From NCBI GenBank assembly GCA_963801165.1, contig CAWDDT010000004.1:96001-160000 (forward strand): DNA of 64,000 bases, given 5' to 3'. Under the pieces are notes generated by a model. That model did no database searches. It was not told the origin of the DNA and worked only from the letters and a program-made list of their open reading frames with translations. A program made the translations under genes and the position numbers. Position 1 is the stretch's first letter. Every line of letters begins with the position of its first letter. This document shows positions 58,111-63,161 of this stretch, one piece after another. This DNA is from an uncultured bacterium (lineage in GTDB: Bacteria > Actinomycetota > Acidimicrobiia > Spongiisociales > UBA5794).

Positions 58111-61100
58111 CTACCCGTCGACTACCCGGCCCACGATCATGAACAGGCGGGCCGACCCGTCCGTGATGGGATAGGTGGCGGCTCCACCGAGGCTGACGTC
58201 CTGCTTGTAGGACGTGCCGACGACGACGACGGCGTCCGTCCCGACGGCAGGAGTCGTGGTCCACCACCAGCCGTCGGTCCGGCCGAACAGCACGATGTCC
58301 TCGACCTCGCTCCAAACGTTGCCGTCGGCGGACAGATAGACCGCAGCCGGTTGCCCCCGGGTGCTGTCGAAGCCGAACGCGGCCAGGCCGAGCGGACCAA
58401 CAGAGATGTCACTCGCCGCCACGATACGGTCGTCGGCCGTGTGCAACTGTCGCCACACGGTTCCGTCATCGGATGTCCAGACACTGAGCCCGTAGTCACA
58501 TTCGGCGCCGGCACTCTCATCCGCGCAGTTCAGCTCCAGGCTCTGCCCGACGACAAAGTAGCGGTCGCGGTCGCGCAGCGCGTTCCCGGAGAAGGCCACG
58601 TTGTCGAGGGCCACGGACTCGGTGACGAGGGTCCAGATCTGACCATCGCGGGTCGACCACATCGACGTCGCACCGGTCGCCGGGTCGTTTACGAAGGCGA
58701 CAAAGCCATCGTCGGTCGCCTCGAATTGCACGCCCGCTTCGATGGTCAGGGGCGGTGGTGTCACCCCAACAGTCACGTGGAAATCCGGGTCGATCATGTA
58801 GAGAGCAGTCGAGCCTCCGGCTTCGTACCGGTTGAAGGTCGCCACGAAGACGAGTATCCGGTCATTGCCGGCGACGCTGCTGAACGCAGAGTTTGCAGGA
58901 TCTTGGGCGGGAATGTCGATGTGTGTCCACTGATCGCCGTCGAAGTACACCATGCCCAGACCCGCTTCGGTCCACTGGTTGGCGACGATCCCATCCTGGA
59001 ACGCACTAACGCCCCACATGTTCCCTACCTCGCCGGGCAACGGCGGCTGCTCCCAATCAACGCCGTCGCCCGAGGTGAACAGAATTGGGTCGGACGCACC
59101 GTTCGTCGTGGTGGTGTAGCCGCTGAGGACAAAACCGAGCTTCGACCAAACGACCGACGGCTGTGTCACCGTGTCGAATCCGTCGGGTTCGAGCCAGCTC
59201 CACTCCATATCCCCGAGTACCGTTGGGACGGTCGCAGTCTCGCCCGGTTGGAGCAGGCGGTCGAGATAATGCCGGGCGGCGTCGAGGTGTTGCTGCGCCG
59301 ATGCCGCGGTGAAAGCGACCCCACCCTCAATCTGTGGCCCAAAGGCTTCCCACATCGCCACCGACGGGTCGACATCGACCGTCGCGCTACTCAGCACGCC
59401 ATCGCGGATCACGGCCCGCAGTCCACCCTGACCATCGCTGCCTGAAAACAAGCTCAGCAGATCGGAGTTCACCGTGTAAGCACAGGACACGTCGACATGA
59501 TCCGACGAACCGAGCGATACCGCGGTCGTGCACCCGTCGACCGCAATCGACGCGTTGGTGCCCGCCAGATAGTCGATCGTCCCTGCAACGCGGTCGGTGA
59601 CCAGGTTGCCCTGATCGTCCCACCAACCCTGGTCCTCGTGTGCCAGGGAGGGAACCTCGAAGGGCGCATGTGGTGGCGAGACCTGTCCTGGAAGCAAATC
59701 CACGAGCGCGCCGGCATCGTGCCCGGACAGGGCTTCGAGGTACGCACGAACCTGATCCTCGGCTGCTGCCGCCGTCGGGTCCGTGTCCCATCGGCCGCGC
59801 CACGTCCCGGTCTCGGCCCCCGACGCTGTTGCCACCAGCGCATCACCGTGGGTGTCGATCGCAAACGAATCGGGGTACGTGCCCCGCAGTGTCTTTCGGC
59901 TCCAATTCACGCCTCCGTCGTCGGTGAGCCAGAGCTCGGTCGCGGCCGTTCCTCCGGTGCTGCCGATGATCGCCATCCTGGCGCCCTCGGCGGCGATTCG
60001 GGAGGGGAGGAACATACCCCGCACGATCACCGACTCATCGATCCCGACGTACATGTCGGCTCGGGGGTCGCCCTCGATCTCTATGCCGCTGGAGGAGATG
60101 CTGTCAACCTTGAAGGTGCCGACGTCGGTCTCAATGGTGGTTCCCACCGTCACCTGTTCCGGGGTGTTGTTGACCGCCAGAACGGCGCTCGGGTTGTCGC
60201 CGGGGTTGGTCGTGGTAACCGAGAACGAGACGCTGGTCTCGTCGAGGTGGGGCTCCCGATCACCAAGACGGCTCCAGTTGGCACCGTCGGTGGATTCCCA
60301 GAGCGCCGGCTCGAGCGGCGCATCCTGTGTGGTGGTCTTGCCGAGCGCCACCAGCCGGTCACCGTCCACCACGAGATCGTCGATGGCATCGACTGCGTCA
60401 TCGATGCCGACCAACTGCCAGTCCATCCCGTCCGTGGAGCGGTAGATGGCGCCGTGGGTCAAGCCTGCGGTCGTTGTCGCCCCGTAGGCGTAGTAGGCGG
60501 TCCCGTCGGTGGCCAGCCCTAGTAGCAGCGCGGTGTCGAGGCCGGTGAGCGTGTCGTGACGGCTCCACTCCACGCCGTCGGCAGAGGTCCATCCGATCCA
60601 CCCGGCGCCGTCGCCGGTGATCGTCAACAGCTGCGGTCCGGCTACGAGACCGATGGCGTTCTGCGGGTCCGGCCCGAGCAAACCTCGGTAGTGCCAGGCT
60701 TCTGCGGGCCGTTGCGATGTCCAGATACCGACGCTGTCCTCGACGCTGCCGAGGGCCACCATGTCGCCGTCCCAGCTGACGATATGGTCGATGCTTGACT
60801 TTCCGACCGGTCTCACGGTGGGGACCTTCTGCCACGTCGTCGCCGAACCGGCCCACCACACCTGCGCCCCTCTCGGCACCGAACCGCCGGCGACGTAGAT
60901 GCCTCCCGCCCGCTCCAGGTCGCGTATCTGCGCCGCGTCGTCGACGGGTGCCGACTCCCACTCGAGCATGTCGTCCGTCGCGGTGCGTAGATCCAGGTTC
61001 CTCGCGTCGAGTGCTGCGATGGGTGGCACCCGGGTGGTAGTCGGCGCGGCGGTCGTGGCTGTGGGGCGGGTCACCACGACGAACACGGCGAGTAGCCCGA

Positions 61101-61263
61101 GCAGGACCGTCACCGGTAGTAGCCAGCGAGGGCGAGGATTGAGATTGGGTGGCGGAGCGGTGGCGTTGTCGTTGGCAGGGAGAACGCGGATAGCCGGTTC
61201 GCTCTCATGACGAGCCAAGCTATTCCCTCCGTTTCTGCGCCGTTTGTTCGAACTCTCCGGCAT
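58111..61263 (-). CDS. Large membrane-anchored protein with Asp-box/BNR-like repeats
   Basis: About 1050 aa; one TM; eight WxSxDGxxW-type repeats in two blocks around a central domain. Confidence 0.75.
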   Translation of the reverse strand: MPESSNKRRRNGGNSLARHESEPAIRVLPANDNATAPPPNLNPRPRWLLPVTVLLGLLAVFVVVTRPTATTAAPTTTRVPPIAALDARNLDLRTATDDMLEWESAPVDDAAQIRDLERAGGIYVAGGSVPRGAQVWWAGSATTWQKVPTVRPVGKSSIDHIVSWDGDMVALGSVEDSVGIWTSQRPAEAWHYRGLLGPDPQNAIGLVAGPQLLTITGDGAGWIGWTSADGVEWSRHDTLTGLDTALLLGLATDGTAYYAYGATTTAGLTHGAIYRSTDGMDWQLVGIDDAVDAIDDLVVDGDRLVALGKTTTQDAPLEPALWESTDGANWSRLGDREPHLDETSVSFSVTTTNPGDNPSAVLAVNNTPEQVTVGTTIETDVGTFKVDSISSSGIEIEGDPRADMYVGIDESVIVRGMFLPSRIAAEGARMAIIGSTGGTAATELWLTDDGGVNWSRKTLRGTYPDSFAIDTHGDALVATASGAETGTWRGRWDTDPTAAAAEDQVRAYLEALSGHDAGALVDLLPGQVSPPHAPFEVPSLAHEDQGWWDDQGNLVTDRVAGTIDYLAGTNASIAVDGCTTAVSLGSSDHVDVSCAYTVNSDLLSLFSGSDGQGGLRAVIRDGVLSSATVDVDPSVAMWEAFGPQIEGGVAFTAASAQQHLDAARHYLDRLLQPGETATVPTVLGDMEWSWLEPDGFDTVTQPSVVWSKLGFVLSGYTTTTNGASDPILFTSGDGVDWEQPPLPGEVGNMWGVSAFQDGIVANQWTEAGLGMVYFDGDQWTHIDIPAQDPANSAFSSVAGNDRILVFVATFNRYEAGGSTALYMIDPDFHVTVGVTPPPLTIEAGVQFEATDDGFVAFVNDPATGATSMWSTRDGQIWTLVTESVALDNVAFSGNALRDRDRYFVVGQSLELNCADESAGAECDYGLSVWTSDDGTVWRQLHTADDRIVAASDISVGPLGLAAFGFDSTRGQPAAVYLSADGNVWSEVEDIVLFGRTDGWWWTTTPAVGTDAVVVVGTSYKQDVSLGGAATYPITDGSARLFMIVGRVVDG

Positions 61264-61305
61264 ACTCCCAACGTTACGCAATGGACACCCGTTCCGGTTC
61301 CGCGC

Positions 61306-61342
61306 TTGCCCGGCCGCGGCACCAGCGTTATCGTGGCCCGCA
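61306..61342 (+). promoter_or_regulatory. Promoter for the leader peptide (near-leaderless)
   Basis: TTGCCC(61306-61311)-17 nt-TATCGT(61329-61334); ATG 8 nt downstream with no SD. Confidence 0.55.
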
Positions 61343-61414
61343 ATGAAGCAGACCTCCTTCTATTTCGTGTATTTCTTTGCCGGGCCCTCGGCCCGGGCAG
61401 AGGGTGCGCGCTAG
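61343..61414 (+). CDS. Phe/Tyr attenuator leader peptide (23 aa, MKQTSFYFVYFFAGPSARAEGAR)
   Basis: 4 Phe + 2 Tyr within 7 consecutive codons, directly upstream of a terminator and an aromatic-pathway gene. Confidence 0.88.
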   Translation: MKQTSFYFVYFFAGPSARAEGAR

Positions 61415-61438
61415 AAGCGAGGCAACGCCAACCCACAG

Positions 61439-61468
61439 CCCGAAGCCGAGAGAGGCTTCGGGTTTTTT
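61439..61468 (+). terminator. Attenuator intrinsic terminator
   Basis: CCCGAAGCC-GAGAGA-GGCTTCGGG-TTTTTT; its 5' arm can alternatively pair with 61394-61405. Confidence 0.9.
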
Positions 61469-61500
61469 CGTGCCTGGAGCCACCGGCACAGGAGACGATC

Positions 61501-62562
61501 ATGACCGACAGACCCATTCTCAAGAGCCACCGGCGACCCGAGGTCGAGACCAGCATCATCTCGGTCGGCAACGTCAGGTTCGGTGACGGCTCGTATCCGG
61601 TCATCGCCGGCCCTACCGCCGTCGAGAGCGAGGAACAGATCGTCGCCACCGCCGTGTCGCTCGCCGAGTCCGGCGCATCGATGCTGCGTTCGGGGACCTT
61701 CCGAGCCGAGCATTCGCCGTACACCTTCAAAGGCATGGGTCGGGAGGGCCTGTGGCTTCTGGAGAAGGCCGGCCACGCCGCCGGCCTGCCAACGGTCACA
61801 GAAGTGATCGAGCCGGGTCACGTCGAGCTAGTCGCGGATCACGCCGACATGCTCGAGATCGGTCCCGACAACATGCAGAACTTCGTGCTGCTACGGGACG
61901 CGGGGAAGACGAACCGGCCTGTGCTGTTGCATCGCGGGGCTTCGGCGACGGTCGACGAGTGGCTGATGGCCGCCGAATACATCCTCGCCGAGGGCAACGA
62001 CAACGTTGTTCTGTGCGAGCGGGGGAGCCGTGGTTTCGACCCGCGCACCTCCGATACGATCGACATCTCGGTCGTTCCCGTGGTCCAGCGTCTTTCCCAC
62101 CTGCCGGTCGTCATTGATCCTGCGCCCGCCACGGGCGGGGCCGACCTCCTCGCCCCCCTGGCCCTGGCCGGGCGGTCGGTGGGAGCCGATGGGCTGGTCA
62201 TCGCCTCGCACCTGAACCCCGGCGCATCGCTGGCGGGCAACGGTAGCCAGCTCGATCTCGGCGAGTTCGCCAAGCTGATGGATCAGCTGGGGATCCCATC
62301 TTTGCGGGACGAGATCGACCGGGTGGACCGGCAGTTGATCAAGCTGATTGCTCGCCGGCTGCACAGCTCGGTCGAGATCGCCAAGATCAAGGCGTCCAAG
62401 GGTCTCGACATGCGGTCTCCGGACAGGGAAGCGGAGCTCATCGAGGAGGCGGTGCATGACGGCGAGGCGTTCGGAGTCGGCCGCGAGTACATCGAGGCGC
62501 TGATGACGATCGTCCTCGACCACAGCCGTGCCGCCCAGCAGCGTGCGGTGGATTCGCGGTGA
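61501..62562 (+). CDS. Degenerate type I-beta DAHP synthase domain fused to a C-terminal AroQ chorismate mutase
   Basis: CAGGAG RBS; DAHPS scaffold (IAGP.AVES, SPY.F.G.G, NMQN, EWLMAAEYI, LCERG) with active-site substitutions; AroQ LRDEIDRVD...ARR...KIK...DRE...S...Q. Confidence 0.88.
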   Translation: MTDRPILKSHRRPEVETSIISVGNVRFGDGSYPVIAGPTAVESEEQIVATAVSLAESGASMLRSGTFRAEHSPYTFKGMGREGLWLLEKAGHAAGLPTVTEVIEPGHVELVADHADMLEIGPDNMQNFVLLRDAGKTNRPVLLHRGASATVDEWLMAAEYILAEGNDNVVLCERGSRGFDPRTSDTIDISVVPVVQRLSHLPVVIDPAPATGGADLLAPLALAGRSVGADGLVIASHLNPGASLAGNGSQLDLGEFAKLMDQLGIPSLRDEIDRVDRQLIKLIARRLHSSVEIAKIKASKGLDMRSPDREAELIEEAVHDGEAFGVGREYIEALMTIVLDHSRAAQQRAVDSR

Positions 62563-63161
62563 CCCTTGATGTTGTAATCGGTGACGACGAGCTGCCCCGC
62601 TGCTGGTGGGGAGACAGCCCGGATATCTATCGCATCTACCACGACGATGAGTGGGGGCGTCCGGTCGACGACGACCACACGCTGTTCGAGAAGCTGTGTC
62701 TGGAAGGGTTCCAGGCCGGGCTGAGCTGGCTGACGATCTTGAAGCGAAGGGAAGGGTTCCGGGCCGCCTTTCACGGCTTCGACATCGACCGTGTCGCTGC
62801 GATGACCGAGCGTGACGTTGCCCGGCTGGTCCAGGACACCGGAATCATCCGGCACCGGGGCAAGATCGAGTCGACCATCAACAATGCGCAACGCGCCCAG
62901 GAGGTGCGTGACGAACTCGGCTCGCTCGGGGCGTTGGTGTGGTCGTATGAGCCGGTTGGCCCGACCACGGTGCGTGAGTCGGTGACGCCCGAGTCGAATG
63001 CGCTGGCCAGGGATCTCAAGAAGCGCGGCTTCACCTTTGTCGGCCCCACAACGGTCTACGCGTTCATGCAAGCCATGGGCGTCGTCAACGACCACCTCGC
63101 CGGCTGCCACGCTCGGGAGACGGTCGATGAGGCCCGGGCAGGGTTCGTGCGGCCGGCGTAG
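62559..63161 (+). CDS. tag: DNA-3-methyladenine glycosylase I
   Basis: RCWW..YHDDEWG, LEGFQAGLSW, IIRHRGKI, FVGPTT, NDH..C. Confidence 0.94.
   Translation: MTLDVVIGDDELPRCWWGDSPDIYRIYHDDEWGRPVDDDHTLFEKLCLEGFQAGLSWLTILKRREGFRAAFHGFDIDRVAAMTERDVARLVQDTGIIRHRGKIESTINNAQRAQEVRDELGSLGALVWSYEPVGPTTVRESVTPESNALARDLKKRGFTFVGPTTVYAFMQAMGVVNDHLAGCHARETVDEARAGFVRPA

Follow-up and report, generated by a model that had tools for sequence, protein, structure and literature searches.

What does a barrel of an aromatic-pathway enzyme do in a protein in which its active site appears to have been lost? This question is raised by one gene in a stretch of 64,000 nucleotides from an uncultured bacterium of the Acidimicrobiia (lineage UBA5794; assembly GCA_963801165.1, contig CAWDDT010000004.1, positions 96,001 to 160,000 of the forward strand), which we refer to as the window. 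The gene (61501..62562, forward strand) encodes 353 amino acids plus a stop codon and joins a type I-beta barrel of 3-deoxy-7-phosphoheptulonate (DAHP) synthase, also abbreviated DAH7PS, to a following AroQ chorismate mutase (CM). The DAHP_synth_1 barrel lies at 61570..62277 on the forward strand (residues 24–259; Pfam 1.2e-56, 192 bits), and the CM_2 domain, the AroQ CM, at 62302..62541 on the same strand (residues 268–347; Pfam 3.1e-18, 66.2 bits against a cut-off of 27). A preliminary description had proposed that the barrel is a dead, possibly regulatory pseudoenzyme, and that together with an attenuator it may form a new control system for aromatic amino acid synthesis. In that proposal the roles of the two domains might be inverted, the barrel acting as a sensor of aromatic amino acids or as a scaffold for an active DAHP synthase. 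Our analysis indicates that the protein is a CM with an N-terminal DAHP-synthase barrel that is predicted to be catalytically dead. On balance, since the barrel is still conserved by selection, it has probably been kept to assist the CM in a non-catalytic way, either structurally or allosterically.

Active site of the barrel

The residues of the barrel were compared by alignment with the solved I-beta DAHP synthases 1vs1, 5j6f and 4grs. The roles of the metal-, PEP- and E4P-binding residues were taken from a paper on a characterised I-beta enzyme (PMC6362186), whose numbering is that of the window protein (P0001) minus 3. Relative to the solved enzymes, GPCSVES is replaced by GPTAVES, FKPRTS by FRAEHS, IGARN by IGPDN and LLKRG by LLHRG, and further along the barrel DPSH is replaced by DPAP, VEVH by IASH and SDG by GNG. 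Every motif substitution listed in the preliminary description was thus reproduced in the three alignments. None of the four metal ligands is kept (C39>T, H209>P, E235>A and D246>G). The losses called earlier at these positions stand, with two corrections: the Glu position is now Ala, Ser being the next residue, and the column of the Asp is occupied by G246, with N247 adjacent to it. At the phosphoenolpyruvate (PEP) site R63 and R174 are kept, and K68 is changed to R, A/S122 to P, R123 to D and K144 to H. The erythrose 4-phosphate (E4P) site is lost (R70>E, T71>H, D246>G). As had been noticed before, the charge is reversed at two Arg positions that bind phosphate, which are now Glu (R70E) and Asp (R123D). 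When the key catalytic positions were scored, none of the eight was canonical in the window barrel. The earlier statement that nearly all catalytic motifs are replaced is right for these eight positions, but the SPY and NMQN stretches and the PEP-binding R63 and R174 are retained. R177 also remains. Taken over the whole pocket, about six basic residues have been lost and three acidic residues gained.

The replacement residues are themselves conserved. Among the 120 closest protein clusters, which have 69% identity or more to the window protein, K68>R occurs in 118, R70>E in 114, R123>D in 119, K144>H in 119, I176>S in 119 and D246>G in 118. The former metal-ligand positions now hold small or hydrophobic residues (V, I, A or T for C39, P for H209, and A, S or L for E235). 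Because of this conservation, the dead state does not reflect chance or strain-specific decay. A position-wise comparison of 32 canonical sequences with 152 pseudo sequences from f1, the family of the window protein, gave the same picture at a larger scale. Seven positions that are invariant in canonical enzymes have been re-specified to another residue that is at least 90% conserved (R123D, K144H, I176S, E180D, T181P, D246G and G247N), and twelve more have been re-specified at 60–90%, including K68R, P69A, R70E, R184S, N185D, S208A and H209P. Nine positions, the metal Cys among them, have turned variable in the f1 pseudo sequences. From its sequence, the barrel of the fusion is predicted to be catalytically dead.

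The fusion exceeds two NCBIfam equivalog cut-offs, those of the DAHP synthase model TIGR01361 (292.1 versus 267.75 bits) and of the bifunctional DAHP synthase/CM model NF009239 (304.6 versus 279 bits). Annotation pipelines therefore name it a DAHP synthase, and the source names of close homologs read 3-deoxy-7-phosphoheptulonate synthase. These scores could be taken to mean that the barrel is still an enzyme, making DAHP by an unconventional site or having gained a new activity, and the new conserved polar residues E70, D123, H144, S176, D185 and N247 could in principle form such a site. However, the metal ligands and E4P-binding residues are gone and two phosphate-binding Arg carry the opposite charge. 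Neither the other dead lineages nor genus g39 of the same family have these new residues in common with the window protein, and a canonical DAHP synthase is present in the genome. We therefore regard an enzymatic barrel as very improbable.

Another use of the remodelled pocket would be to bind a metabolite, for example an aromatic amino acid, and to signal its presence to the CM. The positions re-specified at 90% or more, together with the twelve at 60–90%, would agree with a ligand sensor of this kind. So would the small or hydrophobic residues at the former metal site and the remaining R63, R174 and R177, since a site for an amino acid would presumably require an Arg, an acidic residue and a hydrophobic patch. 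Other dead lineages, however, fill the pocket differently. The dead barrel of family f10 has C39R, K68E and K144E, which looks more like charge compensation than a shared site, and in g39 the f1 set of pocket residues is lost while the barrel is retained. A ligand sensor of this type thus seems rather improbable. If the barrel is instead a non-catalytic partner of the CM, as we favour, the acidic residues that replace phosphate-binding Arg and Lys would probably serve to neutralise a pocket that has ceased to hold anionic substrates, an effect that other dead lineages reach by different replacements.

Fold and selection

A structural model built with AlphaFold2 (AF2) on 53 sequences had a mean predicted local distance difference test score (pLDDT) of 89, with dips only at residues 71–80, 171–190 and 211–220, which are the former active-site loops. 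In a Foldseek comparison the barrel matched the Aeropyrum DAHP synthase 1vs1 with a target template modelling (TM) score of 0.92, a root-mean-square deviation of 1.9 Å and 50% identity. At 66 barrel positions the same scaffold is at least 90% conserved in both the canonical (n = 32) and the f1 pseudo sequences (n = 152). We also collected 64 full-length fusion genes of 44–100% identity from genomes of the same order, and the reading frame was intact at all 64 loci, down to 44% identity; locus L029 of genome G005 was excluded from this set. An intact frame and scaffold, as the preliminary description had it, are therefore well borne out.

The ratio of nonsynonymous to synonymous substitution (dN/dS) was estimated by the Nei–Gojobori method as medians within the genus, from nine genomes and 36 pairs. 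The median was 0.068 for the barrel, 0.084 for the CM and 0.034 for the barrel of the canonical paralog, and these values are approximate because dS exceeds 1 and is saturated in most pairs. Elsewhere, the dead barrels of other families gave 0.05–0.15 and live fused barrels gave similar values of 0.10–0.21. The substitutions are thus conserved in orthologs whose dN/dS is far below 1. With no metal ligand left and a barrel dN/dS of 0.068, the earlier proposal of a pseudoenzyme barrel holds, and the data support a conserved pseudoenzyme domain and no decaying remnant.

The opposite view, that the barrel is a functionless remnant heading for deletion, could point to barrel-less CMs in the same family and to G005, a genome of the same genus, in which the gene is in four out-of-frame pieces. 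A remnant would hardly keep a dN/dS of about 0.07, as low as that of the CM, the 66 conserved scaffold positions and an intact frame throughout the set of fusion loci, and we give this view almost no weight. The pieces in G005 (L029, G005:C5:14359-17883) have 57–90% identity and lie in different frames; they reflect a genuine pseudogene or else indel errors in the assembly, which has 10 contigs.

Chorismate mutase domain and aromatic pathway of the genome

In the CM domain, R269, R286, K297, R309, E310, S342 and Q346 align to Arg11, Arg28, Lys39, Arg51, Glu52, Ser84 and Gln88 of 1ecm, the catalytic residues of the E. coli CM. All seven residues are invariant in the 64 fusion orthologs, so the catalytic set that the preliminary description found intact is kept in full both in the window and in its relatives. 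The AF2 model shows three helices in this domain (268–300, 307–323 and 328–351). Judged by these features, the CM domain looks active.

The genome of the window (G000) is 4.55 Mb in 13 contigs, with 98% completeness and 5.6% contamination. It has one further DAHP_synth_1 gene, located on another contig (contig 9), which encodes a protein of 345 amino acids with a ferredoxin-like regulatory domain (PF18152, DAHP_snth_FXD) and canonical motifs, including all eight key catalytic positions. This is the second, intact DAHP synthase that the preliminary description had envisaged elsewhere in the genome. A prephenate dehydrogenase with an ACT domain (tyrA) lies directly 3' of it, and a prephenate dehydratase is encoded on contig 11. 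Type II DAHP synthase was searched for in G000 and not found, and neither a second AroQ CM (CM_2) nor an AroH CM was found in searches of this 98% complete genome. No CM other than that of the fusion is therefore detectable, whereas for DAHP synthesis there is a second candidate. In the explanation that we favour, DAHP synthesis would be left to the paralog with the ferredoxin-like domain, and the fusion would be the CM of the cell, supplying prephenate for Phe and Tyr.

Relatives of the fusion

The 64 fusions differ greatly in the state of the barrel. All eight catalytic positions are canonical in nine of them (families f6, f8 and f9), none is canonical in 26, all from family f1, and between one and six are canonical in the remaining 29 from other families, with different replacement residues. 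In a tree of the barrels, the fusions form one clade (Shimodaira–Hasegawa-like approximate likelihood ratio test 98) apart from the paralogs with the ferredoxin-like domain, and the catalytic fusions are basal. When the catalytic columns were masked, the free tree needed two state changes, and in an approximately unbiased (AU) test, a tree with the 55 degenerate barrels together in one clade was not rejected (p-AU 0.60). Repeated independent inactivation was considered and dropped, because the AU test allows one dead-barrel clade. What we claim from these sequences is that the barrel was inactivated once or a few times and was then remodelled differently in each lineage. Paralogs with the ferredoxin-like domain are also found in genomes whose fusion is catalytic; redundancy in DAHP synthase is therefore old. 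The order thus holds a working fusion, a dead barrel and a barrel-less CM.

A search of protein representatives returned mostly canonical DAHP synthases of other architectures. Among the nine representatives that were read, only P0123 and P0217 are of the dead type, and both are fragments. Two others, P0121 and P0124 (423 and 465 amino acids), appear to be DAHP synthases with a partial tandem duplication of the barrel, and may be assembly artefacts. Two loci of family f3, L032 in G037 and L033 in G026, have canonical barrels in open frames of 696 and 853 amino acids. Each region also has a weak match to CM upstream of the barrel, and the loci may encode larger multi-domain proteins of the aromatic pathway.

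Family f1 was surveyed in 63 genomes that are at least 90% complete, G000 included. In 42 of these, the full-length fusion is accompanied by at least one further match, which is a barrel-only paralog of 43–47% identity in the 10 genomes among the matches listed. A type II DAHP synthase is present as well in four of the 42. These four genomes (G117, G122, G123 and G151), which combine the dead-barrel fusion, the I-beta paralog and the type II enzyme, have type II scores of about 610 bits, compared with about 695 bits in barrel-less lineages. No second I-beta match was found in 20 of the 63 genomes, and 19 of these 20 have type II DAHP synthase. In genus g39 (6/63) the fusion is the only I-beta-like sequence and is found with a type II DAHP synthase, a pattern that Pfam confirmed in all three genomes tested. 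In g6, g8 and g37 (14/63) there is only a stand-alone CM of about 100 amino acids, with a type II enzyme in 13 of the 14; PF00793 was absent by Pfam search in the four CM-only genomes tested. One genome, G007, showed the paralog only. The stand-alone CMs are 53–57% identical to the CM domain of g39 and 44–47% identical to that of the window, and the genera without an I-beta enzyme are therefore probably one lineage. The g39 barrels have a long stem branch (0.86) and have lost the f1 pocket residues R68, E70, D123, N124 and Q126, with a barrel dN/dS of about 0.07.

In Mycobacterium tuberculosis, a small AroQ CM is reported to need a type II DAH7PS as partner in a non-covalent complex for full activity (PMC7762937). 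The barrel-less relatives resemble this case in that they pair a CM of about 100 amino acids with a type II DAHP synthase in the genome. The window genome differs from it, since no type II enzyme was found there and the CM forms one polypeptide with a dead I-beta barrel. By a related logic, the dead barrel could be a regulatory subunit that co-assembles with the live I-beta DAHP synthase of the ferredoxin-like-domain type through ancestral barrel–barrel interfaces. CM activity and the sensing of prephenate or chorismate would then be brought together in one complex, functionally like the Mycobacterium complex of CM and type II enzyme. The 42 genomes that pair a full-length fusion with at least one further match would be consistent with this, as would the state of the barrel in the 20 genomes without a second I-beta match, in which it is deleted (14) or strongly diverged (the six of g39). 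On the other hand, the g39 barrel still has a dN/dS of about 0.07 with no I-beta partner; purifying selection on a barrel in a genus without an I-beta DAHP synthase argues against an obligatory scaffold role. The correlation may also rest on a single event, the genera without an I-beta enzyme being probably one lineage, and in four genomes all three, fusion, I-beta paralog and type II enzyme, occur side by side. We consider such a subunit unlikely. A heteromer or a sensor is nevertheless kept in consideration, because conservation of the barrel co-varies with the I-beta paralog and the f1 pocket residues are lost in g39.

Leader and probable attenuator

Leader-peptide attenuators of the pheA and trp type consist of a short open reading frame (ORF) with regulatory codons, a hairpin and a terminator with a U-run, placed before amino-acid genes. 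The window has such an arrangement upstream of the fusion. A leader ORF of 23 codons plus stop (61343..61414, forward strand), 158 nt upstream of the start codon, encodes MKQTSFYFVYFFAGPSARAEGAR, in which Phe and Tyr make up six of eight consecutive residues. Hairpin A (CCGGGCC-CTC-GGCCCGG; 61380..61396, forward strand) lies directly 3' of the aromatic codons, was found both in the window fold and in columns 82–98 of the RNAalifold alignment, and would correspond to attenuator segments 1:2. It is followed by an intrinsic terminator hairpin with a T-run (61437..61470, forward strand), whose stem at 61437–61464 has 11 pairs, 7 of them G-C, and which ends 30 nt before the start codon. The z-score of the leader fold was −4.6. 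The RNAalifold consensus of 25 leaders contained both hairpins, with compensatory changes in 3 of 16 pairs; in the same alignment of 25 sequences, the terminator had such changes in 2 of its 9 pairs. As a candidate antiterminator, the 3' arm of hairpin A may pair with the 5' arm of the terminator, through 8 bp interrupted by one bulge in the consensus, and through 3 + 4 bp in the window.

An aromatic-rich ORF, defined as 12–30 amino acids with at least four aromatics in eight residues, was present at 52 of the 64 fusion loci, compared with 0/64 on the reverse strand and 2/64 in shuffled sequences. Known riboswitch and leader families were tried and set aside: an Rfam search of 61000–61700 gave only a chance microRNA match (E 0.27), so the leader is not a known Rfam family. 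The window leader shares with the pheA and trp attenuators the ORF with regulatory codons, the hairpin and the terminator with U-run upstream of a gene of the Phe/Tyr branch, and differs from them in being without an Rfam entry and in having an antiterminator pairing that is putative. In its anatomy, the leader corresponds to a classical Phe/Tyr leader-peptide attenuator, which fits a gene feeding the Phe/Tyr branch, and expression of the fusion would be tuned by it. It is not specific to the dead barrel, because in sister families the same aromatic leader is found in front of fusions whose catalytic positions are intact. The proposal that attenuator and dead barrel are one new control system was therefore not upheld, although the leader and terminator themselves are real. 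In a literature search that did not cover subscription journals, no paper on such an attenuator in Acidimicrobiia was found.

The fusions of g39 have lost the aromatic leader. The leader ORF and terminator are missing upstream of the CM gene at all three g39 loci examined (L054–L056) and at both loci examined with a stand-alone CM (L086 of g6 and L087 of g8). In these leader-less lineages, g39, g6 and g8, a type II enzyme has taken the place of the I-beta DAHP synthase. In the window, a metatranscriptome contig from library X12 (61317–61499, 183 nt) covers the leader only; it begins 26 nt upstream of the leader ORF and stops 2 nt short of the ATG.

Comparison with known enzymes and role of the barrel

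In the order of its parts (barrel, short linker and AroQ CM) and in its length, the fusion is similar to the C-terminal CM-linked DAH7PS enzymes of Prevotella nigrescens and Porphyromonas gingivalis (PMC8408635, PMC12202928). The barrels of those enzymes are active DAH7P synthases inhibited by prephenate, whereas the window barrel keeps none of the eight catalytic positions. Among Bacteroidota-like representatives, the nearest one (P0136) reaches only 36% identity. This type of fusion has been called specific to periodontal pathogens (PMC12202928), whereas here it spans an order of Acidimicrobiia. The isolated CM domain of P. gingivalis has a Km for chorismate of 207 µM, about tenfold that of the full enzyme at 19 µM (PMC12202928), and in P. 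nigrescens the CM activity is allosterically coupled to the DAH7PS domain (PMC8408635). Dependence of the CM on the barrel in these enzymes gives a reason for keeping the barrel, and by analogy the barrel of the window protein may have been retained because CM function depends on it, as in P. gingivalis. That g39 keeps its barrel at a dN/dS of about 0.07 without an I-beta partner speaks for the same explanation.

Several observations weigh against this explanation. Stand-alone CMs of about 100 amino acids occur in fourteen genomes of the family; the barrel is therefore not indispensable. The loss of R68, E70, D123, N124 and Q126 in g39 fits a pocket function tied to the I-beta enzyme better than a purely structural role. 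The loop between helices H2 and H3 of the CM has only about four residues in the model (approximately 324–327), and the extended inter-helix loop that mediates cross-talk in the Prevotella CM (PMC8408635) has no counterpart there, as judged from the model only. To these may be added the saturated dS behind the dN/dS values and, for the attenuator, an antiterminator pairing that was read by eye, while constrained minimum free energy folding of the window leader kept the terminator. The idea that the new Glu and Asp mimic the substrates and lock the barrel in a CM-activating state was also tried, and was rated low because occupancy of the active site alone does not activate the CM in Prevotella (PMC8408635).

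In a more far-reaching reading, the barrel would be a re-purposed regulatory module. In that case a rebuilt and conserved site (R68, E70, D123, H144, S176, D185 and N247 around the now hydrophobic metal site) would sense a pathway metabolite, dock the live I-beta DAHP synthase, or do both, and would so couple the entry enzyme to the branch-point enzyme. The site, the attenuator and finally the barrel would have been discarded after the swap from I-beta to type II. We hold this to be possible but doubtful, and prefer the view that the dead barrel supports the CM structurally or allosterically.

For a CM-containing protein with an I-beta DAHP-synthase domain that does not function there is one precedent, in Shewanella oneidensis, where aroQ-pheA is fused to an 'aroA I-beta pseudogene'. 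Song et al. 2005 (PMC1173090) give this fusion a single sentence and call it 'bizarre'. In this it is like the window fusion. The Shewanella protein belongs to another phylum and has a different order, with CM, prephenate dehydratase and then a C-terminal dead barrel, and that report contains no analysis of selection, distribution or function (PMC1173090). A literature search, which left subscription journals uncovered, found no description of the dead-barrel fusion family of Acidimicrobiia. No paper was found that joins DAH7PS, chorismate mutase and pseudoenzyme, or DAHP synthase, chorismate mutase and Acidimicrobiia, and the single paper joining 'DAHP synthase' and 'pseudoenzyme' was on the topic of glyceollin. 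As far as sequence evidence goes, the family is a DAH7PS–CM fusion whose DAH7PS half is a conserved pseudoenzyme.

Gene start, expression and neighbouring genes

A ribosome-binding site, GGAG (61491..61494, forward strand), was read from the sequence 6 nt before the ATG at 61501, and the starts of orthologs align to this Met. A longer ORF from 61207 (451 amino acids) was rejected as the gene. It would overrun the leader ORF and the terminator, and orthologs all begin at the Met at 61501; for these reasons the frame from 61207 is considered spurious. The G+C content of the window is about 65%. Exact-match contigs came from two RNA libraries, at 61317–61499 and 62194–62382 in X12 and at 61566–61812 in X18. 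They give a weak hint of expression, as such contigs prove neither transcription nor transcript ends.

Downstream, a gene for DNA-3-methyladenine glycosylase I (62559–63161, forward strand; PF03352, 2.2e-69) begins 4 nt before the end of the fusion gene, with a GTGA overlap at its stop codon. A homolog of this gene (Tag) lies at most about 1.3 kb downstream of the fusion at 16 of 18 f1 loci examined and at none of nine loci in other families; three of the f1 loci have it in the reverse orientation. Upstream and divergent to the leader is an ORF of 1056 amino acids (58111–61281, reverse strand), for which Pfam yielded nothing at an E value of 0.001 or below. The protein has a hydrophobic segment at its N-terminus and many repeats of a W-x-S/T-x-D-G-x-x-W flavour.

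Significance

The annotation of the fusion as a DAHP synthase is likely to mislead. For these Acidimicrobiia, which are abundant in sediment and soil, metabolic reconstructions would include a DAHP synthase that probably does not exist, and could overlook the fusion gene as the only CM. The family also adds a bacterial metabolic case, with a clear evolutionary path, to the literature on pseudoenzyme domains, and should be of solid interest to enzymologists and annotators. For the study of DAH7PS–CM enzymes it provides a natural experiment, in which one bacterial order contains working forms, many dead forms under selection, and barrel-less forms. A non-catalytic role of the fused barrel for the CM is therefore testable on natural proteins.

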